Shown piece after piece: positions 3,014 to 64,000 of a stretch of 64,000 nucleotides of DNA. Location of the stretch: positions 12,276,001 to 12,340,000 of the forward strand of contig NC_091998.1 of NCBI RefSeq assembly GCF_044704955.1. The letters are read 5' to 3'. Below the pieces are notes generated by a model, which saw nothing but the letters and a program-made list of their open reading frames with translations, did no database searches and was not told the origin of the DNA. The position numbers and the translations under genes were made by a program. The DNA comes from Pristiophorus japonicus. Lineage: Eukaryota. Position 1 is the stretch's first letter. The number at the start of each line of letters is the position of its first letter.

Positions 3014-4843
3014 CCATTATCTCTAAATCAATGCCACAGTCTGAGGTTGTGCATTGTGGATTTCCCAGCAGGTATCGGTGCGATTATTTCAACTAATCTC
3101 AGTAACATCTCACCTTGTGTCTTTCCTCAGATTGTAACAAGAATGAAGACTTTTTTTCCCCAAATGATTTAAAACAAGTAAGATCATGAATGACAGAAAC
3201 CTTAGAAACATAAAACATAGAAACATAGAAATTTACAGAACAGAAGGAGGCTATTCCGGCCCATCTTAGAAACATAGACATAGAAATATAGAAAATAGGT
3301 GCAGGAGTAGGCCATTCGGCCAATTCGAGCCTGCACCGTCATTCAATGAGAGTTCATGGCTGAACATGCAACTTCAGTACCCCAGTTCCTCAACAACTTT
3401 CTGTGGTAGAGAATTCCACAGGTTCACCACTCTCTGGGTGAAGAAGTTTCTCCTCATCTCAGTCCTAAATGGCTTACCCCTTATCCTTAGACTGTGACCC
3501 CTGGTTCTGGACTTTCCCAACATTAGGAACATTCTTCCTGCATCTAACCTGTCTAAACCCGTCAGAATTTTAAATGTTATAATGAGATCCCCTCTCATTC
3601 TTCTGAACTCCAGTGAATACAAGCCCAGTTGATCCAGTCTTTCTTGATAGGTCAGTCCCGCTATCCCAGGAATCAGTCTGGTGAACCTTCGCTGCACTCC
3701 TTTAATAACAAGAATGTCCTTCCTCAAGTTAGGAGACCAAAACTGTACACAATACTCACCAAGGCCCTGTACAACTGTAGCAACACCTCCCTGCCCCTGT
3801 ACTCAAATCCCCTTGCTATGAAGGCCAACATGCCATTTGCTTTCTTAATCGCCTGCTGTACCTGCATGCCAACCTTCAGGTGACTGATGTACCATGACAC
3901 CCAGGTCTCATTGCACCTCCTCTTTTCCTAATCTGTCACCATTCAGATAATAGTCTGTCTCTCTGTTTTTACAACCAAAGCGGATAACCTCACATTTATC
4001 CACAATAAACTTCATCTGCCATGCATTTGCCCACTCATCTAACCTATCCAAGTCACTCTGCAGCCTCATAGCATCCTCCTCGCAGCTCACACTGCCACCC
4101 AACTTAGTGTCATCCGCAAACTTGGAGATACTACATTTAATCCCCTCGTCTAAATCATTAATGTACAATGTAAACAGCTGGGGCCCCAGCACAGAACCTT
4201 GCGGTACCCCACTAGTCACTGCCTGCCATTCTGAAAAGTACCAATTTACTTCTACTCTTTGCTTCCTGTCTGCCAACCAGTTCTCAATCCACGTCAGCAC
4301 ACTACCCCCAATCCCATGTGCTTTAACTTTGCACATTAATCTCTTGTGTGGGACCTTGTCGAAAGCCTTCTGAAAGTCCAAATATACCACATCGACTGGT
4401 TCTCCCTTGTCCACTCTACTGGAAACATCCTCAAAAAATTCCAGAAGATTTGTCAAGCATGATTTCCCTTTCACAAATCCATGCTGACTTGGACCTATCA
4501 TATTACCTCTTTCCAAATGCACTGCGATGACATCCTTAATAATTGATTCCATCATTTTACCCACTACCGATGTCAGGCTGACCGGTCTGTAATTCCCTGT
4601 TTTCTCTCTCCCTCCTTTTTTAAAAAGTGGGGTTACATTGGCTACCCTCCACTCCATAGGAACTGATCCAGAGTCAATGGAATGTTGGAAAATGACTGTC
4701 AATGCATCCACTATTTCCAAGGCCACCTCCTTAAGTACTCTGGGATGCAGTCCATCAGGCCCTGGGGATTTATCGGCCTTCAATCCCATCAATTTCCCCA
4801 ACACAATTTCCCGACTAATAAGGATTTCCCTCAGTTCCTCCTT

Positions 4844-5137
4844 CGGCGGCAGTCGGGAGCAGCATCGAGGAGGTGCGTGGAGAGGCCTATAAAAGGCACA
4901 GCAGGGAGTCCGGGGCCCAGAGTCGGCGGCAGTCGGGAGCAGCGTCGAGGAGGTGCGTGGAGAGGCCTATAAAAGGCACAGCAGGGAGTCCGGGGCCCAG
5001 CGTCGGCGGCAGTCGGGAGCAGCGTCGAGGAGGTGGGTGGAGAGGCCTATAAAAGGCACAGCAGGGAGTCCGGGGCCCAGCGTCGGCGGCAGTCGGGAGC
5101 AGCGTCGAGGAGGTGCGTGGAGAGGCCTATAAAAGGC
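4844..5137 (+). repeat. About 3.7 tandem copies of an 80-bp CpG-rich monomer, each with a TATA box (putative CR1 promoter array)
   Basis: Units start at 4844, 4924, 5004 and 5084; each contains GGCCTATAAAAGGC. Confidence 0.92.
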
Positions 5138-5310
5138 GTACTTGTGCAGCTACAGGGAGAAGGCAAAAAAGAAGTAGAAAGAAATCAAAAGGTGACGTCA
5201 CAGCCAAGAGGGTAAGTGATTGGCGAGTAGTTTTTCTTTTTTCTCTTCTATATCAGTGAGTAACTTTTAACACTGTTGTTGCCAATTTAAGTGTATATAA
5301 GGGTTAAGTC

Positions 5311-6258
5311 ATGGCAGGAGAGCTCGGTCGGGTGTTATGCTCCTCCTGTACCATGTGGGAACTCAGGGACACTTCCGGTGTCCCTGACGATTACGTGTGC
5401 GGGAAGTGTATCCGCCTCCAGCTCCTGACAGACCGCGTTGCGGAGTTGGAGCTGAGGGTGGATTCACTCTGGAGCATCCACGATGCTGAGAATGACGTGA
5501 GTATCACGTGTAGCGAGTTGGTCGTACCACAGGGAAAGGGTCCACAGCCAGATAGGGAATGGAAGACCAACAGGAAGAGCAGTGCAAGGAAGGTAGTGCA
5601 GGAGTCCCCTGTGGTCATCCCCCTGCAAAACAGATACACTGCTTTGGGTACTGTTGAGGGGGATGACTCATCAGGGGAGGGCAGCAGCAGCCAAGTTCAT
5701 GGCACCGTGGCTGGCTCTGCTGCACAGGAGGGCAGGAAAAAGAGTGGGAGAGCAATAGTGATTGGGGATTCAATGGTGAGGGGAATAGATAGGCGTTTCT
5801 GCGGCCGCAACCGAGACTCCAGGATGGTATGTTGCCTCCCTGGTGCAAGGGTCAAGGATGTCTCGGAGCGGGTGCAGGACATTCTAAAAAGGGAGGGAGA
5901 ACAGCCAGTTGTCGTGGTGCACATTGGTACCAACGACATAGGTAAAAAGAGGGATGAGGTCCTACGAAACGAATTTAAGGAGCTAGGAGCTAAATTAAAA
6001 AGTAGGACCTCAAAAGTAGTAATCTCGGGATTGCTACCAGTGCCACGTGATAGTCAGAGTAGGAATCGCAGGATAGCGCAGATGAATACGTGGCTCGAGC
6101 AGTGGTGCAACAGGGAGGGATTCAAATTCCTGGGGCATTGGAACCGGTTCTGGGGGAGGTGGGACCAGTACAAACCGGACGGTCTGCACCTGGGCAGGAC
6201 CGGAACCAATGTCCTAGGGGGAGTGTTTGCTAGTGCTGTTGGGGAGGATTTAAACTGA
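5311..6258 (+). CDS. CR1 ORF1p, intact, 315 aa: C4 zinc finger, leucine zipper and SGNH/GDSL esterase domain
   Basis: CSSC...CGKC, LQLLTDRVAELELRVDSL, IGDSMVR, HIGTND and DGLH motifs. Confidence 0.93.
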   Translation: MAGELGRVLCSSCTMWELRDTSGVPDDYVCGKCIRLQLLTDRVAELELRVDSLWSIHDAENDVSITCSELVVPQGKGPQPDREWKTNRKSSARKVVQESPVVIPLQNRYTALGTVEGDDSSGEGSSSQVHGTVAGSAAQEGRKKSGRAIVIGDSMVRGIDRRFCGRNRDSRMVCCLPGARVKDVSERVQDILKREGEQPVVVVHIGTNDIGKKRDEVLRNEFKELGAKLKSRTSKVVISGLLPVPRDSQSRNRRIAQMNTWLEQWCNREGFKFLGHWNRFWGRWDQYKPDGLHLGRTGTNVLGGVFASAVGEDLN

Positions 6259-9240
6259 TATGGCAGGGGGATGGGAACCAATGCAGGGAGACAGAGGGAA
6301 ACAAAAAGGAGGCAAAAGCAAAAGACAGAAAGGAGATGAGGAAAAGTGGAGGGCAGAGAAACCCAAGGCAAAGAACAAAAAGGGCCACTGTACAGCAAAA
6401 TTCTAAAAGGACAAAGGGTGTTAAAAGAACAAGCCTGAAGGCTTTGTGTCTTAATGCAAGGAGTATCCGCAATAAAGTGGATGAATTAACTGTGCAAATA
6501 GATGTTAACAAATATGATGTGATTGGGATTACGGAGACGTGGCTCCAGGATGATCAGGGCTGGGAACTCAACATCCAGGGGTATTCAACATTCAGGAAAG
6601 ATAGAATAAAAGGAAAAGGAGGTGGGGTAGCATTGCTGGTTAAGGAGCAAATTAAGGCAATAGTTCGGAAGGACATTAGCTTGGATGATGTGGAATCTAT
6701 ATGGGTAGAGCTGCAGAATACCAAAGGACAAAAAACGTTAGTGGGAGTTGTGTACAGACCTCCAAACAGTAGTAGTGATGTTGGTGAGGCCATCAAACAG
6801 GAAATTAGGGGTGCGTGCAATAAAGGTGCAGCAGTTATAATGGGTGACTTTAATATGCACATAGATTGGGTTAACCAAACTGGAAGCAATACGGTAGAGG
6901 AGGATTTCCTGGAGTGCATAAGGGATGGTTTTTTAGACCAATATGTCGAGGAACCAACTAGGGGGGAGGCCATCTTAGACTGGGTGTTGTGTAATGAGAG
7001 AGGATTAATTAGCAATCTCGTTGTGCGAGGCCCCTTGGGAAAGAGTGACCATAATATGGTGGAATTCTGCATTAGGATGGAGAATGAAACAGTTAATTCA
7101 TAGACCATGGTCCAGAACTTAAAGAAATGTAACTTTGAAGGTATGAGGCGTGAATTGGCTAGGATAGATTGGCGAATGATACTGAAGGGGTTGACTGTGG
7201 ATGGGCAATGGCAGACATTTAGAGACCGCATGGATGAACTACAACAATTGTACATTCCTGTCTGTCGTAAAAATAAAAAAGGGAAGGTGGCTCAACCGTG
7301 GCTATCAAGGGAAATCAGGGATAGCATTAAAGCCAAGGAAGTGGCATACAAATTGGCCAGAAATAGCAGAGAACCCGGGGACTGGGAGAAATTTAGAACT
7401 CAGCAGAGGAGGACAAAGGGTTTGATTAGGGCAGGGAAAATGGAGTACGAGAAGAAGCTTGCAGGGAACATTAAGACGGATTGCAAAAGTTTCTATAGAT
7501 ATGTAAAGAGAAAAAGGTTAGTAAAGACAAACGTAGGTCCCCTGCAGTCAGAATCAGGGGAAGTCATAACGGGGAACAAAGAAATGGCGGACCAATTGAA
7601 CAAGTACTTTGGTTCGGTATTCACTGAGGAGGACACAAACAACCTTCCGGATATAAAAGGGGTCGGAGGGTCTAGTAAGGAGGAGGAACTGAGGGAAATC
7701 CTTATTAGTCGGGAAATTGTGTTGGGGAAATTGATGGGATTGAAGGCCGATAAATCCCCAGGGCCTGATGGACTGCATCCCAGAGTACTTAAGGAGGTGG
7801 CCTTGGAAATAGTGGATGCATTGACAGTCATTTTCCAACATTCCATTGACTCTGGATCAGTTCCTATGGAGTGGAGGGTAGCCAATGTAACCCCACTTTT
7901 TAAAAAAGGAGGGAGAGAGAAAACAGGGAATTACAGATCGGTCAGCCTGACATCGGTAGTGGGTAAAATGATGGAATCAATTATTAAGGATGTCATCGCA
8001 GTGCATTTGGAAAGAGGTAATATGATAGGTCCAAGTCAGCATGGATTTGTGAAAGGGAAATCATGCTTGACAAATCTTCTGGAATTTTTTGAGGATGTTT
8101 CCAGTAGAGTGGACAAGGGAGAACCAGTCGATGTGGTATATTTGGACTTTCAGAAGGCTTTCGACAAGGTCCCACACAAGAGATTAATGTGCAAAGTTAA
8201 AGCACATGGGATTGGGGGTAGTGTGCTGACATGGATTGAGAACTGGTTGTCAGACAGGAAGCAAAGAGTAGGAGTAAATGGGGACTTTTCAGAATGGCAG
8301 GCAGTGACTAGTGGGGTACCGCAAGGTTCTGTGCTGGGGCCCCAGCTGTTTACACTGTACATTAATGATTTAGACGAGGGGATTAAATGTAGTATCTCCA
8401 AATTTGCGGATGACACTAAGTTGGGTGGCAGTGTGAGCTGCAAGGAGGATTCTATGAGGCTGCAGAGCGACTTGGATAGGTTAGGTGAGTGGGCAAATGC
8501 ATGGCAGATGAAGTATAATGTGGATAAATGTGAGGTTATCCACTTTGGTGGTAAAAACAGAGAGACAGACTATTATCTGAATGGTGACAGATTAGGAAAA
8601 GGAGAGGTGCAACGAGACCTGGGTGTCATGGTACATCAGTCATTGAAGGTTGGCATGCAGGTACAGCAGGCGGTTAAGAAAGCAAATGGCATGTTGGCCT
8701 TCATAGCGAGGGGATTTGAGTACAAGGGCAGGGAGGTGTTGCTACAATTGTACAGGGCCTTGGTGAGGCCACACCTGGAGTATTGTGTACAGTTTTGGTC
8801 TCCTAACCTGAGGAAGGACATTCTTGCTATTGAGGGAGTGCAGCGTAGGTTCACCAGACTGATTCCCGGGATGGCGGGACTGACCTATCAAGAAAGACTG
8901 GATCAACTGGGCTTGTATTCACTGGAGTTCAGAAGAATGAGAGGGGACCTCAGAAACGTTTAAAATTCTGACGGGGTTAGACAGGTTAGATGCAGGAAGA
9001 ATGTTCCCAATGTTGGGGAAGTCCAGAACCAGAGGACACAGTCTAAGGATAAGGGGGAAGCCATTTAGGACTGAGATGAGGAGGAATTTCTTCACCCAGA
9101 GAGTGGTGAACCTGTGGAATTCTCTACCACAGAAAGTTGTTGAGGCCAATTCACTAAATATATTCAAAAAGGAGTTAGATGAAGTCCTTACTACTAGGGG
9201 AATCAAGGGGTATGGTGAGAAAGCAGGAATGGGGTACTGA
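6243..9240 (+). pseudogene. CR1 ORF2p (AP endonuclease + reverse transcriptase) with two lesions
   Basis: LNARS, ITETW, GDFN, SDHN, QGSVLGP and FADD motifs; TAG at 7101-7103 (GAG in the paralog at 9892) and a 2-bp deletion at about 8952. Confidence 0.93.
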
Positions 9241-29513: not shown

Positions 29514-32500
29514 ATGGCCACTAGCAGAACAGACGAGAGGTACTGTGTTAAGGAATGGTTGGGACAGAGATTCAACATTGTTAAAGCAGCACACAGTTCT
29601 CCAGGCAGACAAGGGCAGTCAGGCATGCCCCAACATGTAGTCGAACCCAGAGGGGGAGTTCGACAGAGACAATGGCTAGCTGAACAGTGATTCATGCCAT
29701 TGCAAGGGACAATGCGGCCAGTAATGGGGCCATCAACACCTGTTAATGTTGCACTCAAGGACAATAACAGGGGCAGTCAGGGACGATCGACTGGCAAGGG
29801 ACCTTTTGTTTCAAACAGCAACTCATGCTGGAGGTGTGGAGGCACACATTCAGGCGAAGTTTGCAGAGATGAGCAAAATACCTGCAGAAATTGCAGAAAT
29901 GGACACTGGGGGAAATCGCTGGAAGCTGAAGTTCAGCGAGTTCATGTGGAGCACGTATACAGTTCATACACCAGGACGCCACCGATAATGATGAAAGTGC
30001 TCCTCAATGATATCCCAGTATCAATGGAGTTAGACACGGGTGCCAGCCAGTCCCTGATGGGTATCAAACAGTTTGAAAAGTTGTGGGCATCCAAGGCCAG
30101 GAGGCCAAAATTATCGTCGATTGACGCACAGCTACGGACTTACACAAAGCAGATCATTCCGGTGCTAGGCAGCGCCACGGTAGTCGTGACCCACAAAGAT
30201 TCGGAGAACAGGTTGCCACTCTGGATTGTCCCAGGGGACGGTCCCGCACTACTGGGGAGGAGTTGGCTTGCTGTCATGAACTGGAAATGGGGCGATATCA
30301 ATGCAATTTCCTCTGTGGAGAGAGTATCATGCTCACATGTCCTGGACAAATTTGAGTCATTATTTCAACCCGGCATTGGCACTTTCATGGGGGCCAAGGT
30401 AGTGATTCACATAAACCCGGACGCCAGACCAGTACACCACAAGGCCAGAGCGGTGCCATACGTGATGCGGGAAAAGATAGAAGGCGAATTGGACCGCCTG
30501 TTGAGGGAAGGCATCATCTCGCCAGTCGAATTCAGTGACTGGGCGAGCCCGATTGTGCTCAAGGCGGATGGGTCGGTCAGGATATGTGGCGATTACAAGG
30601 CCACCATCAATCGGGTGGCACTCCAAGACCAGTACCCGCTACCGAGAGCGGAGGACCTCTTTGCGACGCTATCCGGTGGCAAACTTTTTTCAAAATTGGA
30701 CCTGACCTCAGCTTACATGACCCAGGAGCTGGCGAGTGAGTCGAAGAAGCTAACCACCATCACGACACACAAGGGGTTGTTTGAGTACAACAGATGTCCG
30801 TTCGGGATTCGCTCGGCCGCCGCGATCTTCCAACGAAATATGGAAAGCCTCCTCAAGTCGATTCCAGGGACGGTGGTTTTTCAGGACGACATCCTCATTA
30901 CGGGTTACGATACTGAAGAACACCTCCACAACCTGGAGGAGGTGCTACGCAGACTGGACCGGGTAGGTCTGCGACTGAAAAAGGCGAAGTGCGTCTTCCT
31001 AGCTCCAGAGGTAGAATTCCTGGGGATGAGGATAGCAGCAGACGGGATCAGCCCTACTGCATCCAAGACAGAAACGATCCAGAGAGCACTCAGACCCCGT
31101 AACACGATGGAGCTGCGTTCGTTCCTGGGGCTCCTGAACTATTTTGGTAACTTTCTTCCCAAATTGAGCACGCTGCTAGAGCCGCTACACGTGCTCCTAC
31201 GCAAAGGTCGCGAATGGGTCTGGGGGGACAGCCAGGAAAGTGGCTTTTAATAGAGCACGCAATTTGTTATGTTCCAACAATCTGTCAACGCTATATGACC
31301 CATGTAAGAAACTTGTGTTAACGTGCGATGCGTCGTCCTATGGTGTCGGGTGTGTGTTGCAGCATGTCAATGCCAAGGGTCAGTTACAGCCGGTAGCTTA
31401 TGCCTCCAGGTGTCTGTCCCAGGCAGAAAGGGGCTACGGGATGGTAGAAAAGGAAGTGCTTGCATGTGTATATGCGGTAAAGAAAATGCACCAGTACCTG
31501 TTTGGCAGGAAATTTGAGCTGGAGACAGATCGCAAACCCCTAACGTCCCTTTTGGCCGACAACAAGGCCATAAATGCAAACGCATCGGCCCGCATACAGA
31601 GGTGGGCACTCAAGTTAGCTGCCTATGACTACACAATTCGGCACAGACTGGGCACTGAAAACTGCGCCGATGCACTCAGCAGGCTCCCACTAGCCACCAC
31701 TGAGGGGGCTACCGAGCATGGTGCTGAGATGGTCATGGCTGTTGAAGCTTTCGGAAGCGAAGGCTCACCCGTGACAGCCCGTCAGATTAAAGTCTGGACA
31801 AATAGAGACCCACTATTGTCTCTAGTCAAGAAATGTGTCCTGAATGGGGACTGGGCAGCCACGTACAGGGCATGCCCTGAGAAATGTAAACCATTTCACA
31901 GGCGCAAGGATGAACTCTCGATTCAGGCCGATTGCCTACTGTGGGGAAACCGCATAGTCATGCCCCAGATGGGCAGAGAGGTGTTCATCAGAGAACTCCA
32001 CAATGGGCACCCGGGCATTGTCACGATGAAGGCAATTGCCAGGTCACACGTTTGGTGGCCAGGGATAGACGCAGATCTGGAACTTTGTGTTCGCAGGTGC
32101 AACACGTGTGCCCAGCTAGGCCATGCGCCCAGGGAAGCCCCCCTTAGCCCCTGGCCATGGCCCGCCAAGCCTTGGTCACGCATCCATGTGGACTACGCAG
32201 GTCCTTTCATGGGGAAAATGTTTTTGGTTGTAGTAGACGCCTACGCCAAATGGATCGAGTGTGATATTTTAAATTCAAGCACATCCTCTGCCACAATAGA
32301 AAGTCTACGGGCAATGTTCGCCGCCCACGATCTACCGGACATCTTGGTCAGCGACAATGGCCCGTGCTTCACAAGCACTGAATTCCAGGACTTCATGGCA
32401 GGCAATGGAATTAACCATGTTAGAACGGCACCGTTCAAGCCGGCCTCAAACGGCCAGGCAGAACGAGCAGTGCAGATAATCAAACAGGAGATGCTCAGAT

Positions 32501-33065
32501 TCCAAGGGGGTTCCCTACAAACCCGCTTATCACGTCTCCTGTTGGCCTATAGATCCCGACCACAATCGCTCACAGGGGTTCCACCCGCAGAGCTACTAAT
32601 GAAAAGGACGCTCAAAACCCGATTATCCCTTATACGCCCCACCATGAAAGAAATTGTCGAGAGCAGGCGCCAGTCACAATATCACTACCATGACAGGAAT
32701 GCAAGGGCGCGACGTATTGATGTAAATGATCCTGTTTTTATCCTCAACTACGCTGCAGGGCCCAAATGGCTCGCAGGCACTGTGGTTGCCAAAGAGGGAA
32801 ATAGGATTCTGGTAGTTAAACTTACCAATTGACAAATCTGCCGCAAACATGTGGATCAAACAAAAAGGAGGTTCAGCAACCCCATAGAAGAAGCAGAGGA
32901 AGAACACGATATAGAGTTCAGTCCACCACAGGTGACCGAACACCAGAACCAAAGGGAGGAGAGCCCAGTCACTGTGGGCAGTCCGGACAGGCCTGAGGCA
33001 CTGCAAACAGCAGACACTCAGGCCAGCGCCCAACAACCGGAGTCCCAACTCAGGCGCTCTACAAG
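29514..33065 (+). pseudogene. Gypsy gag-pol: shortened Gag, protease, RT, RNase H, integrase
   Basis: CWRCGGTH knuckle, LDTGA, FQDD, CDAS, H-H-C-C, VDYAG/SDNG/AER; stops at 29688 and 32830, frameshift at about 31240; last codons (ERKPPERLNL*) displaced to 35615-35648. Confidence 0.93.
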
Positions 33066-35608: not shown

Positions 35609-38015
35609 TACAAGGGAGCGTAAACCACCAGAGAGACTCAACCTGTGATCCCAATAAGACTTTGTGGGGGGGAGGTGATGTCATGTATTCAACCAGCATT
35701 GTAACCCATGTATAAACTGACCTAAGTTGTACACTGTGAGAACACTGACCACTAGGTGGGAGCCACTCCTAACCTGGACCCTCAGGTATAAAAGGGGAAG
35801 CTCCACCCACCTTCATCACTTGAGTGCTAAGGAATAAAGGACAGGTCACAGACTGACCTTCTCTCAAGCATGGCCCTCGTGTGCATTTATACTGTGTAGT
35901 AAGGACGTATCACTTGGTTTTAACACTATCCTTAATTTCCCTTGTTAGCCACGGTTGAGCCACTTTCCCCGTTTTATTTTTACTCCAAACAGGGATGTAC
36001 AATTGCTGAAGTTCATCCATATGATCTTTAAATCTTTGCCATTGCTTATCCACCGTCAACCCTTTAAGTATCCTTTGCCAGTCTATTCTAGCTAATTCAC
36101 AAAGTTACCTTTCCTTTAGTTCAGGACCCTAGTTTCCAAATTAACTATGTCACTCTCCATCTTAATAAAGAATTCTACCATATTATGATCACTCTTCCCC
36201 AAGGGGACTCGCACAACAAGATTGCTAATTAGTCCCTTCTCATTACACATCACCCAGTCTTGGATGGCCAGCTCTCTAGTTGGTTCCTCGACATATTGGT
36301 TGAGAAAACCATCCCTAATACACTCCAGGAAATCCTCCTCCACCGCATTGCTACCAGTTTGGTTAGCCCAATCAATATGTAGATTAAAGTCGCCCATAAT
36401 AACTGCTGTACCTTTATTGCACACATCCCTTCTTTCTTGTTTGATGCTGTCCCCAACCTCACTACTACTGTTTGGTGGTCTGTACAACTCCCTCTAGTGT
36501 TTTCTGCCCTTTGGTATTCCGCAGCTCCACCCATACCGATTCCACATCATCCAGGCTAATGTCCCTCCTTACTATTTCCTCTTTAACCAGCAACGCCACC
36601 CCGCCTCCTTTTCCTCTCTGCCTATCCTTCCTAAATGTTAAATACCCCTGGATGTTGAGTTCCCAGCCTTGGTCACCCTGGAGCCATGTCTCCGTGATGC
36701 CAATTACATCATATCCGTTAACTGCTGTCTGCGCAGTTAATTCGTCCACCTTATTCCGAATACTCCTCGCATTGAGGCACAGAGCCTTCAGGCTTGTCTT
36801 TTTAACACACTTTGCCCCTTTAGAATTTTGCTGTAATGTGGCACGTTTTGCTTTTTGCCTTGGGTTTCTCTGCCCTCCACTTTTACTATTCTCCTTTCTA
36901 TCTTTTGCTTCTGCCTCCATTTTATTTCCCTCTGTCTCCCTGCATAGGTTCCCATCCTCCTGCCATGTTAGTTTAACTCCTCCCCAACACTCACCCCAGG
37001 ACATTGGTTCCGGTCCTGTCCAGGTGCAGACCGTCCGATTTCTACTGGTCCCACCTTCCCCAGAACCGGTTCCAATGTCCCAGGAATTTGAATCCCTCCC
37101 TTTTGCACCACTCCTCAAGCCACGTATTCATCTGAGCTACCTGTGATTCCTACTCTGACTAGCACGTGGCACTGGTAGCAATCCTGAGATTATTACTTTT
37201 GAGGTCCTACTTTTTAATTTAGCTCCTCACTCCCTAAATTCGTCTCGTAGGAATTCATCCCGTTTTTTACCTATATCGTTGGTACCTATGTGCACCACGG
37301 CAACTGGCTGTTCACCCTCCCTTTTCAGAAAGTCCTGCACCCGTTCCGAGACATCCTTGACCCTTGCACCAGGGAGGCAACATACTATCCTGGAGTCTCG
37401 GTTGTGGCCGCAGAAACGCCTATCTATTCCCCTTACAATCGAATCCCCTATCACTATATCTCTCCCACTCTTTTTTCTGTCCTCCTGTGCAGCAGAGCCA
37501 CCCACAGCTGCTGCTGCCCTCCCCTGATGAGTCATCCCCCTCAACAGTACCCAAAACGGTGTATCTGTTTTGCAGGGGGATGACCGCAGGGGACCCCTGC
37601 ACTACCTTCCTTGCACTACTCTTCCTGTTGGTCACCCATTTACTATTTGGCTGTGCCCTTTACCTGCGGTGAGACCAACTCGCTGAACGTGCTATTCATG
37701 TCATTCTCAGCATCGTGCATGTTCCAGAGTGAATCCACCCGCAGCTCCAGTGCCGCAATGCGGTCGCACACATAGTCGTCAGGGACACCGGAAAGCGTTT
37801 CTGACTTCCCACATAGTGCAGGAGGAGCATAACATGTGTCCGAGCTGTACTACCATGACTTAACCCCGAGATTAACTTAATTTGGCAACAACAATGCAAA
37901 ATGTTACTTGCTGATATAGAAAAGAAAAAGAAAAACTACTCACCAATCACCAGTCAATCACTTGCTCCCTTGGCTGTGACGTCACCTTTCGATTTCTTTC
38001 TACTTCTTTTTGCCA

Positions 38016-44600: not shown

Positions 44601-46005
44601 TGCTTTTTGTCTTGGGTTTCTCTGCCCTCTACTTTTACTATTCTTCTTTCTATCTTTTGCTTCTGCCCCCTTCTATTTCCCTCTGTCTCCCTGCATAGGT
44701 TTCCATCCCCCTGCCACATTAGTTTAACTCCTCCCCAACAGCACTAGCAAACACTCCTCCAAGGACATTGGTTCCGATCCTGCCCAGGTGCAGAACGTCC
44801 CGGTTTGTACTGGTCCCACCTGCCCCAAACCGGTTCCAATGTCCCAGGAATTTGAATCCCTCCCTTCTGCACCAGTCCTCAAGCCACATATTCATCTGAG
44901 CTATCCTGCGATTCCTACTCTGACTAGCACGTGGCACTGGTAGCAATCCTGAGATTACTACCTTTGAGGTACTTTTTAATTTAACTCCTAGCTCTCTAAA
45001 TTCGTCTCGTAGGACCTCATCCCGTTTTTTTACCTATATCGTTAGTACCTATGTGCACCACGACAACCGGCTGTTCACCCTCCCTTTTCAGAATGTCCTG
45101 CACCCGCTCCGAGACATCCTTGACCCTTGCACCAGGGAGGCAACATACCATCCTGGAGTCTCGGTTGCGGCTGGAAACGCCTATCTATTCCCCTTACAAT
45201 TGAATCCCCTATCACTATCGCTCTCCCACTCTTTTTCCTGCCCTCCTGTGCAGCAGAGCCAGCCACGGTGCCATGAACTTGTCTGTCGCTGCTCTCCCCT
45301 GATGAGTCATCCCCCTCAACAGTACTCAAAGCAGTGTATCTGTTTTGCAGGGGGATGTCCGCAGGGGACCCCTGCACTACCTTCCTTGCACTGCTCTTCC
45401 TGTTGGTCATCCATTCCCAATCTGGCTGTGGACCCTTTACCTGCGGTATGACCAACTCGCTAAATGTGCTATTCACGTCATTCTCAGCATCATGCATGCT
45501 CCAGAGTGAATCCACCCGCAGCTCCAGTTCCGCAATGCAGTCTGTCAGGAGCTGGAGGCGGACACACTTCCTGCACACATAGTTGTCAGGGACACTGGAA
45601 GCGTCCCTAACTTCCCACATAGTACAGCAGGAGCATAACATGTGTCCGAGCTCTCCTGCCATGACTTAACCCTTAGATACACTTAAATTGGCAACAATAA
45701 TGCTAAAAGTTACTTACTGATATAAAAAAGAAAAAGAAAAACTACTCACAAATCACCAGCCAATCACTTACCCCCTTGGCTGTGACGTCACCTTTTGATT
45801 TCTCTCTAGTTCTTTCTTTCCTCCCTGCTGCAGCTGTACAAGCCACGCCTCCTCGACCCTGGACTCGTGCTGCCCAACTGCCCGAACTCCTCCTCCGATG
45901 AGCCTTTATAGGCCTCTCCGACCCCGGACTCGCACTGACCGAGTGCCCGAACTCCTCCTCCGACGAGCCTTTATAGGCCTCTCCGACTCCGGACTCGCAC
46001 TGACC
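41653..46005 (-). mobile_element. Full-length degenerate CR1
   Basis: ORF1 45662-44719 (frameshifted), ORF2 pieces 44720-41750, two 63-bp 5' monomers at 45880-46005, tail at 41653-41677. Confidence 0.93.
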
Positions 46006-60279: not shown

Positions 60280-60579
60280 TTAGTCCAGCTGTCCACAATC
60301 AGCGATGGTAACTTTTTTTTTGGTTTTGCCACTTGAATCGCCCAACGCTTCCATCTTCTTCACAACTTCATCATACCCCTCTGTCACAGATCCAAATACA
60401 ACATGCTTTCCATCCAACCTTCAAGATTCAACAACAGACATTAGTGACCACAGAATCGTGCAGTGAATCATGGAGAGAGAATACTAAGTCACCATACACT
60501 TACCACGAAGTTTTTGCAGTGCATAAAAAAAACTGGGATCCATTCGTATTTGGCCCAGCATTGGCCATGGACAGGATAC
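60280..60579 (-). CDS. Second cyclophilin A/D-type gene, last two exons (60579-60504 and 60418-60280), intact; earlier exons not in window
   Basis: [26 protein letters not shown] + [45 protein letters not shown]; GT-AG boundaries, 76-nt exon 5, AATAAA at 60244-60249. Confidence 0.88.
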
Positions 60580-60869
60580 CTGCAACAGTAAGGTGACAAG
60601 TAGTAAACATTCCATAAATATGTTCAGCGTCCTCTCCTGTATAACTTGCACTTAGGTGGTGCCTTTCATGTAATGAAAATGTTAAAATGCATTTCTGGGC
60701 CTGGGAGAAAGAACAGGGTGAGACAAGTTGGGAGGGAGAGATGACTGAAGGTGACCGAGGTAGGTTTGGAGGCAATTTTGAAAGCGAGTAGAAATGCAAC
60801 AGAAGCAGCCAAGCAACACATTCCTCCACAGCTACATTATGGATTCTGTCATCCGTATTGTACGGATAT

Positions 60870-62879
60870 AGACCTCTGGGGAGGCGTAGGGTTAGGGAAA
60901 GCCAACTCCAGCGGTACCTTGCTCCTGACAAAATCCTGGAACACAACAGTGTCATCAACAGTGTTTCTCCAGAAGGACAAGTACAAGGCATCGTGGCAAC
61001 ACAATCGCTCCACGCAATGGCACCTGCTCGACTAAGTCATCGTCCGAGCGAGGGACGCACACATCACCTGCGCCATGACAGAAGTCAACGACTGCTGGAC
61101 GGACCATCGCCTAATCCATTCCGTCATCAACATTAATATAGCCCCAAAGCGAAGGCGGCAACAAAAGCAATGCCGCAGAAAAATCAACGTCGGGGCACTC
61201 AAAGACCCAGTTGAGAGCCCTATACAGCCAGCGTCTCACTGCCAAACTGGCAACCCCCAATGACCAAGATGCAGAATATCCACAGCACTTGGTCTGCCCT
61301 CCAGGCCACCATAACCAGTGCCTGCGAAGAGGCGCTCGGTCATTCAACCAGGAAACACCAGAACTGGTCTGATGAGAATGAGCAGGAGATCCAAGAGCTA
61401 ATAAACCGCAAGCGCAGAGCATTTCTGAACCTAAAGCAACAACCCAACTCGGGAGCAGCAAAGCAGCTCTACGGACAGCTGAAGGCCGAGGTTCAATAAA
61501 AAACACGCAATCTAAAGAATAGATGGTGGGTGGAGAAAGCACAGGAGATTCAGCAGTTGGCCGACAGCCATGATGTGCAACGATTCTTCACCGCAGTTAA
61601 GTCCACCCACAGCCCTCGCACCCAAGGCCCCACCCCACTGCTGGCCAAGAATGGGGAGACACACATCAAGGACACCGAGGCAGTCAGGGCCTGTTGAAAG
61701 GAGTAATTCGAAGATCTCCTTAATTGAGACTCCGTCTGACACGAGTGTCCGACTCCAGCCCGCAGCATGCTATCCGCCACCATCTCAGCAAAACCCCAGC
61801 CCTGCACGAGGTAGAAAAGGCCATCTGTCAGCTCAAGAACAAAGCATCAGGAGCAGATGGAATCCCTGCTGAGGCACTAAAGTATGCTGGAGAGGCACTA
61901 TTGGTGTGAATGCATGACCTCATCTCGCTCATCTGGAAGGAGGAGTGCATACCTAGAGATCTAAGATATGCCGTTATAATAACCATCTTTAAAAGGGGGA
62001 GGCAAGTCCGACTGTGGCAACTGCAGAGAAATCATCCTGTTGTCGGCCACTGGGAAAGTCATCGCTAGAATCCTCCTCAACCGCCTTCTCCCTGTGGCTG
62101 AGGAGCTTCTCGCAGAGTCACAATGTGGACTCCATCCACTACGGGGTACAACGGACACGATCGTCATGGTGCAAGAGAAATGCAGGGAACAGCACCAACC
62201 CTTGTACATGGCCGCCTTTGACCTCACAAAGGCCTTTGACACTTAACCGCGAGGGACTATGGAGCATCCTTCTCCATTTCAGCTGCCCCCAAAAGGTTGT
62301 CGACATCCTCCACCTGCTCCACGACGACATCCAAGCAGTGATCCTGACCAATGGATCCACCACAGACCCAATCCAAGTTCGGACCGGGGTGAAGCAGGGC
62401 TGAGTCATCATGCCAACCCTCTTAATCTTCCTCGCTGCAATGCTCCATCTCACGCCCAACAAGTTCCCTGCTGGAGTGGAACTAAGCTATAGAACCAGTG
62501 GAAACCTGTTCAACCGTAGTCGCCTCCAGACTAGATCTTCGGTCATCAAACTACAATACGTGGATGCGCTTGCATCTGTGCAGAGGCTGAACTCCAAGCC
62601 ATCGTCAACATCTTGACCGAGGCATAAGAAAGCATGGGCCTTACACTAAACATCTGTAAGACAAAGGTCCTCCACCAACCTGACCCCTGCCACACAGCAC
62701 TGCTCCCCAGTCATCAAAATCCACATCAAAATTGGACAAAGTGGACCACCTTCCATACCGAGAGCCTACTATCAACAAGGGCAGACATCGATGTCTAGGT
62801 CCAACACTGCCTCCAGTGCGCCAGCGCAGCCTTCGGTAGTGTTTGAAGACCAGGACCTCAAATCTGGCACCAAGCTTAC
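60870..62879 (+). mobile_element. Degenerate RTE LINE (endonuclease end + RT) in cyclophilin intron 4
   Basis: WHLLD, CWTDHRLI, KASGADGIPAE, GKVIARILLNRL, DLTKAFD and GVKQG motifs with many frameshifts. Confidence 0.88.
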
Positions 62880-64000
62880 GGGGACGTCGGAGCGGCCTAT
62901 AAAAGGCCAGCTGGTGCAGCTGCAGCAGGGAGAGAAGGCAAAAAAGTAGAAAGAAATCAAAAGGTGACATCACAGTCAAGGAGGTAAGTGATTGGTGAGT
63001 AGTTTTTCTTTTTCTTTATCAGTAAGTAACCTTTAGCATTGTTGTTGCCAAATTAATGGGCTAGGAGCTAAATTAAAAAGTAGGACCTCAAAAGTAGTAA
63101 TCTCAGGATTGTTACCAGTGCCACGTGCTAGTCAGAGTAGGAATTGCAGGATTGCTCAGTGAATACGTGGCTTGAGGAGTGATGCACAAGGGAGGGATTC
63201 AAATTCCTGGGACATTGGAACCGGTTCTGGGGGAGGTGGGACCAGTACAAACCGGACGGTCTACACCTGGGCAGGATCGGAACCAGTGTCCTAGGGGGAA
63301 TATTTGCTTGTGCTGTTGGGGAGGGGTTAAACTAATGTGGCAGGGGGATGGGAACCTATGCAGGGAAACAGAGGGAAGTAGAATTGGGGCAGAAGCAAAA
63401 GATAGAAAGGAGAATAGTAAAAGTGGTGGGCAGAGAAACCCAAGGCAAAAAGCAAAGAGGACCACATTACAGCAAAATTCTAAAAGGGCAAAGGGTGTTA
63501 AAAAGTCAAGCCTGAAGGCTCTGAGCATTCGCAATAAAGTGGACGAATTAACTGCGTAGATAGCAGTCAACGGATATGATGCAATTGGCATCACGTAGAC
63601 AAGACTCCAGGGTGACCAAGGCTCAACATCCAGGGGTATTCAACATTTAGGAAGGATAGACAGAAAGGAACAGGAGGCAGGGTGGCGTTGCTGGTTAAAG
63701 AGGAAATTAATGCAATAGTAAGGAAGGACATTAGCTTGGATGATGTGGAATCGGTATGGGTGGAGCTACAGAATACGCTAGTGGGAGTTGTGTACAGACC
63801 ACCAAACAGTAGTGAGGTTGGGAACAGCATCAAGCAAGAAATTAGGGATGCATGCAATAAAGGGACAGCAGTCATCATAGGCGACTTTAATCTACATATT
63901 GATTGGGCTAACCAAACTGGTAGCAATGCGGTGGAGGAAGATTTCCTGGAGTGCATTAGGGATGGTTTTCTAGACCAATATGTCGAGGAGCCAACGATAG
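62880..64000 (+). mobile_element. CR1 5' portion with most of ORF1 deleted; runs off the window
   Basis: GGCCTATAAAAGG 5' end and UTR cassette, then a jump at about 63057 to the ORF1 3' third, followed by degenerate APE. Confidence 0.9.

Follow-up and report, generated by a model that had tools for sequence, protein, structure and literature searches.

The reverse transcriptase of CR1 retrotransposons with an esterase-type ORF1 is likely made by ribosomes slipping back one base, and junction sequences compared across families make it probable that ORF2 of these elements is reached by a -1 frameshift at a heptamer. ORF1 ends in X_UUA_AAC plus a stop, and ORF2 is open one base back. Most ribosomes would terminate at this stop and release ORF1p, while a minority would slip by -1 at the heptamer and yield an ORF1-ORF2 fusion, predicted at about 1310 aa in family A. 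The Leu and Asn tRNAs would slip in tandem, fixing the ORF1p:ORF2p ratio as with Gag-Pol, and the basic linker would tether the esterase to the apurinic endonuclease (APE). The stimulator may be a G-run 8-10 nt downstream, perhaps together with the adjacent stop, which might work as linear RNA, by binding a protein or by folding into a two-tier G-quadruplex (G4).

In most vertebrates, CR1-group elements are described as the prevailing retrotransposons (PMC13343379), and the translation mode of LINE ORF2 has been called unclear (PMC3708506) or unknown (PMC5009743). Frameshifting would be a directly testable answer to this question, and we found no earlier report of a -1 frameshift in CR1 in the literature searched. 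If true, the product of CR1 ORF2 would have to be seen as an esterase-APE-RT fusion, and both the annotation of intact CR1s and the constructs used in their retrotransposition assays would change. The CR1 G-run may also provide a natural G-rich stimulator, of which a 2016 review stated that none was yet known.

The element and its ORF1/ORF2 junction

The window (the whole 64,000-nt stretch analysed) contains a shark CR1 LINE of the esterase-ORF1 type, young but no longer intact, together with four further junctions:

4843..5310, + strand: CR1 5' UTR, with no ATG between 4846 and 5310
4843-5137, + strand: 80-bp unit in 3.7 tandem copies, at the start of the 5' UTR
5311..6258, + strand: ORF1, 315 aa, with a C-terminal SGNH/GDSL esterase and a D-L-N-stop end
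6234..9240, + strand: ORF2 (APE and RT), in the -1 frame
6234..6258, + strand: ORF1/ORF2 overlap, 25 nt, AUG-free
6249..6255, + strand: putative slippery heptamer T_TTA_AAC, in ORF1 phase
6256..6258, + strand: ORF1 stop TGA, directly 3' of the heptamer
6255..6452, + strand: linker in the -1 frame, basic and rich in purines
6263..6284, + strand: weak hairpin of family A (-7.4 kcal/mol), 7 nt past the heptamer
6266..6275, + strand: two conserved G-runs, 10 nt downstream of the heptamer, which may act as 3' stimulator
63326..63335, + strand: second junction, G_TTA_AAC-TAA, with UAAUG overlap
44719..44728, - strand: third junction, G_TTA_AAC-TAA, with UAAUG overlap
36968..36977, - strand: fourth junction, G_TTA_AAC-TAA
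12694..12703, - strand: family B junction, T_TTA_AAC-TAG

The ORF1 reading frame spans 5308-6258, and its esterase domain matches PF13472 (E 1.9e-13), with ORF1 also matching PDB 4c1b (E 1.2e-30); this SGNH esterase places it in type IVB, the ORF1 class so defined (PMC4120745). ORF2 matches PF03372, PF14529 and PF00078, so that APE and RT are both present, and shares 36% identity with that of a bird-type element. The ORF2 of this copy carries a stop at 7101-7103 and its frame breaks near 8950; another copy keeps an intact ORF2 frame of 1002 codons. By eye, the junction is nearly identical to that of the published ScyCan_CR1-1a. A copy listed with a frame of 1146 codons is no in-frame fusion: its junction is of the usual kind, and its ORF2 has a frame of its own, 1002 codons long.

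An earlier note on this DNA had claimed a phased T_TTA_AAC at the end of ORF1 and an ORF2 open across it in the -1 frame, and both are present: the heptamer is followed at once by TGA, and the -1 frame is open from 6234 on, its preceding stop lying at 6231-6233. The recurrence that it described was equally found, namely G_TTA_AAC-TAA three times and T_TTA_AAC-TAG in family B, each followed by a cagg(g/a)ggatgg(g/a)aacc block; in other lineages the ORF1 stop is TAA or TAG. The linker runs for 66 codons up to the N-A-R-S motif of APE, with an in-frame AUG at 6336 and +1-frame AUGs at 6260 and 6281.

Conservation of the heptamer and of the -1 frame

In a junction-blind sample of 100 random 10-kb stretches (1 Mb), all 12 ORF1 ends carried X_TTA_AAC-stop, with T as first base in 3/12 and G in 9/12; the commoner form in the shark genome is thus the imperfect-XXX G_TTA_AAC, which counts against frameshifting. 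As a chance level, the window has 5869 stop triplets, of which 29 (0.5%) directly follow a canonical X_XXY_YYZ. X_TTA_AAC plus stop was found in 21/24 family B junctions (with a junction-blind query), 20/25 of family C, 25/30 of older A and 2/2 bird-type elements; three divergent host families share it with two bird-type CR1s (30% identity). The motif is present, too, in published CR1 consensuses from further sharks and from rays, coelacanth, frog, lizard and crocodilians, matches mostly obtained by searching with the motif itself. Weak genome-contig matches (L073-L076) were excluded from all counts, the P0005 search returned only family A variants, and viral scans gave no matches. A DNA search of the shark's own genome gave no match either, nor did two protein searches run at very strict E-value limits. 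In contigs of four runs, the rows listed show either T or G at 6249 and a TAA stop.

The synonymous constraint that the earlier note proposed to check is strict between lineages: the final Leu codon is TTA and the final Asn codon AAC in every one of six lineage sets. Of 12 other degenerate residues that are invariant within the final 54 codons, by contrast, 11 are written with two or three codons, and TTA accounts for 9-17% of Leu codons in the compared ORFs. The distance from heptamer to APE varies (197, 209, 164 and 110 nt), and the frame is -1 in all; the mode in family C is likewise -1 (9/23). In the family B majority no in-frame AUG occurs before or within the first part of APE, and the other two frames (0 and +1) are closed by many stops.

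At the protein level, 41 of 69 ORF1 homologues end in LN, preceded by ten different residues, each encodable with a final T. None of 34 dereplicated proteins has E, Q, K, M or W before LN, whereas these residues make up 17% nearby (P 0.0016; Fisher p 0.0005), values to be read with the E-L-N form having been absorbed by dereplication and with kin not independent. In a clade with crab members, placed on a quick tree, the ends are mostly Q/S/A-G-N, with S-K-N as sister to S-G-N. Such Gly-Asn ends would fit encoding by G_GGA_AAC, as judged from amino acids only, and point to an apparent switching of heptamers in distant relatives; longer, fused proteins of the crab type were looked for and none turned up, a result of little weight.

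The proposal of the earlier note that ORF2 is made as an ORF1-ORF2 fusion by programmed frameshifting thus gains strong comparative support, because the codons are invariant, the frame is kept across linker lengths, family B lacks an AUG and the heptamer has apparently been switched; of its arguments, the G4 as drawn is not supported and that from the missing AUG is weakened. The features of a -1 frameshift cassette found here are the phased heptamer, an open -1 ORF without a start in the overlap, and synonymous constraint.

Candidate downstream stimulator and possible other routes to ORF2

The four G-runs reported after the heptamer, the first 10 nt downstream, do occur in the window copy (6266-70, 6273-75, 6286-88 and 6296-98). 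The quadruplex drawn from them did not hold up: only the first two runs are conserved, runs 3 and 4 being absent or shifted in families B, C and bird-type elements, a G4 is predicted in 2 of 7 copies folded, and no conserved three-tier G4 was found across families A, B, C and bird-type. The conserved downstream feature is only a G-run about 8-10 nt past the heptamer, whose local G-richness ranks in the top 0.4-0.8% of windows in A, C and bird-type elements and at 6.6% in B. The conserved base-paired 3' stimulator of a frameshift cassette was not found, folding of the families giving no conserved stem-loop or pseudoknot 5-9 nt downstream; no counterpart of the family-A hairpin was seen in families B and C or in the bird-type elements, folding z-scores are -2.8 in family A and -0.25 to +0.67 in the other four, and an Rfam search at the junction gave no match. 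A long-range duplex was also considered: 6263-6273 can pair perfectly over 11 nt with ORF1 5616-5626, which is the best partner in 26/30 young A and 24/26 older A copies but in neither B nor C nor the bird-type elements, and the duplex was rejected as conserved stimulator. The broadest reading, in which a fusion RT is made by a -1 shift from sharks to birds, and in crustaceans with swapped heptamers (G_GGA_AAC, A_AAA_AAC), driven without a pseudoknot by a natural G-quadruplex- or protein-dependent G-run stimulator conserved since the jawed-vertebrate ancestor, we regard as doubtful.

The AUGs of the linker bear on the main alternative, in which ribosomes stop at the end of ORF1 and restart at a nearby -1-frame AUG or non-AUG codon, as in SART1 (UAAUG) or L1, where reinitiation is already established (PMC2881922; PMC3708506) and, for L1, ORF2 initiation is described as AUG-independent. 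The ATG at 6336 is, as claimed, absent from the other three family-A copies of the window, but each has another in-frame AUG, two as a UAAUG stop-start and one about 19 codons in. The argument from a lacking conserved AUG is weaker than it was made, since most lineages have an in-frame AUG somewhere in the linker (28/28 open copies of young A, 12/20 of C, both bird-type elements), which also counts against frameshifting; only family B has none. In element L071 the in-frame AUG lies 2 nt past the stop. The right-frame UAAUG occurs in 2/5 window copies, 2/30 older A and the published catshark consensus, but in 0/12 random junctions, and a conserved stop-start coupling of SART1 type was accordingly not found among these copies. 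Furthermore, AUG positions are non-homologous between lineages, family B is without any, and young A has its two +1-frame AUGs upstream of the in-frame one. UGGGA, which we take to be a TURBS-like motif, has no common offset and is missing from both bird-type elements. Reinitiation, which leaves the TTA/AAC invariance and the preceding T or G unexplained, seems to us unlikely.

Both routes might coexist, with an ancestral frameshift and some lineages also reinitiating at a linker AUG. Linker AUGs do recur in several lineages with the heptamer retained, although chance alone predicts scattered AUGs in a fast-evolving linker; we give this little probability as a separate account, and it is compatible with frameshifting, in whose estimate it is partly counted.

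Equally improbable is an account in which selection on ORF1p function preserves the terminal Leu-Asn and the heptamer simply follows from it. Alignment A1 does show L314 and N315 without variation, and the catalytic D-x-x-H usually lies 26 residues from the ORF1 end in vertebrates; but A1 was drawn from LN-ending proteins, and protein selection can fix neither synonymous codons nor the third base of a preceding, freely varying residue, so that codon invariance largely refutes this account. Nor does the esterase fold need LN, since the crystallised ZfL2-1 homologue and its 7-member clade end without it.

CURAY is the branch-point consensus, and a spliced mRNA bringing ORF2 to an AUG, with the junction motif as branch point or other splicing signal, is barely credible: family A junctions are CURAY-like across the stop and donor-like sites lie near 5211 in the 5' UTR, but the TAG lineages (B, bird-type) break the pattern and the best polypyrimidine tract ahead of any AG has a median of 7-9 pyrimidines in 15 nt. 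The contigs have at least 7 joints, none GT..AG among those listed, and cannot test splicing. Transcriptional slippage was set aside by reasoning, there being no long homopolymer.

Comparison with known systems

PMC5009743 counts U_UUA_AAC, G_GGA_AAC and A_AAA_AAC with the heptamers that shift most readily, and lists G_UU as an XXX that is tolerated. The retroviral, coronaviral (IBV U_UUA_AAC) and equine arteritis virus (G_UUA) sites which it describes share with CR1 the heptamers, their phase and a polymerase ORF downstream in the -1 frame. In contrast to them, CR1 is a non-LTR element and has a purine-rich G-run instead of a conserved pseudoknot or stem-loop 5-9 nt downstream. In this respect it recalls the protein-stimulated or unstructured 3' signals of arterivirus (nsp1beta/PCBP), Semliki Forest virus and Ty3, with a linear-RNA stimulator sometimes farther out than a pseudoknot; the CR1 candidate is G-rich, and the likeness is an analogy only.

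Among APE-type non-LTR elements, Dictyostelium TRE5-A and TRE3-A are stated in a review to need a -1 frameshift for ORF2 translation (PMC5911963), although their ORF1 and clade are unrelated to those of CR1. SART1 and L1 share a bicistronic LINE mRNA with ORF2 dependent on ORF1 translation; they make a separate ORF2p, whereas CR1 has a conserved putative slip site and no conserved start. Finally, 2A/StopGo sequences in invertebrate CR1, L2 and Crack LINEs are a virus-like recoding within the CR1 group itself (PMC3708506); 2A splits one ORF, whereas the CR1 signal would join two.

The window element and its junction

The junction under study belongs to a young family A element, annotated as follows.

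4843-9340, plus strand: CR1-type LINE
5311-6258, plus strand: ORF1, 315 aa, with an SGNH esterase domain match (PDB 4c1b, E 1.2e-30)
Plus strand, downstream of ORF1: ORF2, with APE and RT domains (domain match), disrupted here at two points, a stop (7101-7103) and a break in the frame near 8950

A sawshark protein is the closest named match in the protein search (96% identical). The C-terminal half of ORF1 gave 171,900 first-look candidates in the 5.9 Gb genome and, since the top 93 among the matches listed are identical, this is a young family. A sister copy with an intact ORF2 (L157, G000:C24) has a 1002-codon frame in -1, and its ORF1 frame is reported open over 1146 codons, extending far upstream; a shift at the heptamer would yield, by arithmetic, a predicted product of 315 + 995 = 1310 aa. 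At the 5' end (4843-5137), an 80-bp unit is repeated 3.7 times with a TATAAAA box in each, possibly a monomer-type promoter, and the 5' UTR (5208-5265) holds a splice-donor-like site, a pyrimidine tract and an AG. The element is inserted, with little or no target-site duplication, into an older minus-strand CR1 (3908-4845 and 9338-9530). The window also contains a Gypsy-type LTR retroelement pol (29691-32832; RT, RNase H and integrase across two frames by domain match) and a minus-strand open frame (60500-61036), whose terminal stretch we take to be cyclophilin-like.

The earlier note placed a slippery heptamer, T_TTA_AAC (6249-6255), directly before the ORF1 stop and proposed that ORF2 is made by -1 frameshifting; all the junction features it named were located in the window at their positions. 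A -1-frame stop at 6231-6233 limits the ORF1/ORF2 overlap to 25 nt, within which there is no AUG. Such a stop a few codons upstream is also present in families B and C and in the bird-type element L072; in L071, also bird-type, the -1 frame is open further upstream, and Met is absent from the 15 codons displayed. A second T_TTA_AAC-TAG (13648-13657, minus strand) lies in the 5' UTR of a family B element directly ahead of ORF1, and the same string occurs in the CR1 5' UTR of two dogfish consensus sequences, among the published material accessible.

Conservation of the heptamer

The junction signal is real and deeply conserved. Using a junction-blind profile without the last seven ORF1 residues on a random sample of 100 evenly spaced 10-kb stretches, X_TTA_AAC plus a stop was found at 12/12 ORF1 ends (9 with G, 3 with T). 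T_TTA_AAC-TGA was present in 30/30 young A copies, near-clones retrieved with a query containing L-N, and among 30 older A copies the heptamer carried G in 23 and T in 2. It was retained in 21/24 family B copies (query lacking the junction, window copy excluded), 20/25 family C copies and both bird-type elements (two metagenome contigs, ORF1 identity ~30%). Copies missing it mostly bear one change each, of differing kinds, as expected for dead copies; the stop that follows varies among TAA, TAG and TGA. A comparison of lineage-majority codons, covering the final 54 positions of ORF1 (26 in the bird-type pair), gave TTA for the terminal Leu and AAC for the Asn in every lineage. By contrast, of the 12 remaining invariant residues with degenerate codons, 11 are written with two or three different ones; the synonymous-site comparison suggested in the earlier note upheld the heptamer. 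Among all Leu codons of these ORFs, TTA makes up 9-17%.

Between the heptamer and the N-A-R-S motif of APE lie 197 or 209 nt in A, 164 nt in B (14/24) and 110 nt in the bird-type pair, in each case in the -1 frame, which is also that of the modal heptamer-to-APE spacing in C (9/23); the remaining C spacings deviate because the G-run is unstable. Among the family C copies, G-run length differs, frequently breaking the frame, and a donor-like CAG/GTGAG comes after it. Another copy, L068, has a T_TTA_AAC-TAA junction and a long G-run with unrelated sequence beyond, possibly a fourth family or a truncation.

Published consensus sequences (PMC13343379 supplement, at most 400 characters each in the part accessible, judged by eye) carry matches at ORF1-end-like places in 11/12 TAG-form, 6/8 TAA-form and 1/2 TGA-form cases among the matches listed, a search that is circular in using the motif itself. 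The families are those of alligator, crocodile, bearded dragon, frog, coelacanth, bowfin, elephant shark, sawfish, stingray, catshark and dogfish, and most such matches have a G-run 6-10 nt downstream. Anchoring on APE codons gave nine rows, with the heptamer in 3/3 showing the ORF1 end and a fourth row starting within it; the rows contain gaps, so reading frames are not derivable from them. AldAff_Crack-2, a consensus carrying the Crack label, has the same combination of heptamer and stop at what resembles the end of an esterase ORF1; in the portion available, the authors report finding no ORF1 in vertebrate Crack (PMC13343379).

Proposed frameshifting and its alternatives

Judged from sequence, a minor ORF1-ORF2 fusion is probably produced by ribosomes that would slip -1 in tandem at X_UUA_AAC. 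Downstream, the four G-runs of the earlier note all exist in the window, but the third and fourth are not conserved; what is conserved begins 8-10 nt past the heptamer, where a tract of roughly five G or longer is separated by 1-2 nt from a second tract of three or four. Ranked by G4 score against 25-nt windows, this feature is among the top 0.4-0.8% in family A, family C and the bird-type pair, and within the top 6.6% in family B. RNA folding gave a weak hairpin in A only (z -2.8; others -0.25 to +0.67), and positions 5616-5626, whose 11 nt are perfectly complementary to the region of the G-run, would allow a long-range duplex in family A only. The G-run is a candidate stimulator, whether linear, protein-bound or as a two-tier G4.

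Reinitiation at a linker start codon is an unlikely source of ORF2, feasible as it is in most lineages taken singly: an in-frame AUG stands at codon 27 in young A (after two +1-frame AUGs), near codon 19 in several of the older A copies, in 12/20 family C copies and in both bird-type linkers, at positions non-homologous between lineages, and a UAAUG overlap occurs in a minority of copies. The family B majority lacks an in-frame AUG in the linker and early APE (8/10 open copies; 14/24 are not open), which reinitiation leaves unexplained unless initiation is non-AUG, as it does the codon invariance. Frameshifting plus reinitiation is very improbable, and so, equally, is protein constraint; splicing is the least credible of all.

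Traces in ORF1 proteins and known systems

L-N terminates 41/69 ORF1 homologues, those with names including swallow and common lizard; the others mostly look truncated or continue in another frame. Dereplication at 70% left 85 representatives from the 180/268 proteins having a readable tail, where the residue before L-N has ten identities, every one encodable with a final T. E/Q/K/M/W never precede L-N (0/34 vs 17% nearby, P 0.0016; 0/24 at 60%, P 0.005), and pyrimidine- versus purine-ending two-codon residues are 11:0 there and 32:43 nearby (p 0.0005). In these statistics the known E-L-N form drops out at dereplication, and the proteins, being related, are non-independent. A quick tree of 66 rows groups 20 of them in one clade (support 98), with relatives assigned by name to snow crab and swimming crab; its tails are G-N (9), F-F-x (3), K-N (1), L-N (1) or something else (6), S-G-N and S-K-N being sisters. 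No ending of this kind occurs in the 7-row clade (support 100) to which the solved ZfL2-1 esterase belongs.

Our literature search, whose partly accessible sources include PMC11835228, PMC2881922, PMC13405545, PMC4120745, PMC5006619, PMC3905857, PMC4255032 and PMC3708506, found no proposal of CR1 -1 frameshifting, although an older suggestion may exist; in the accessible parts, PMC5009743 does not mention CR1 and the PMC13343379 text and supplement lack the word "frameshift". The four heptamers rated most shifty include G_GGA_AAC, A_AAA_AAC and U_UUA_AAC (PMC5009743, accessible part), which encode G-N, K-N and L-N, respectively; the crab-type endings may, from their amino acids, reflect these heptamers. 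Among known systems, -1 frameshifting is stated for the Dictyostelium elements TRE5-A and TRE3-A (PMC5911963, in the part available).
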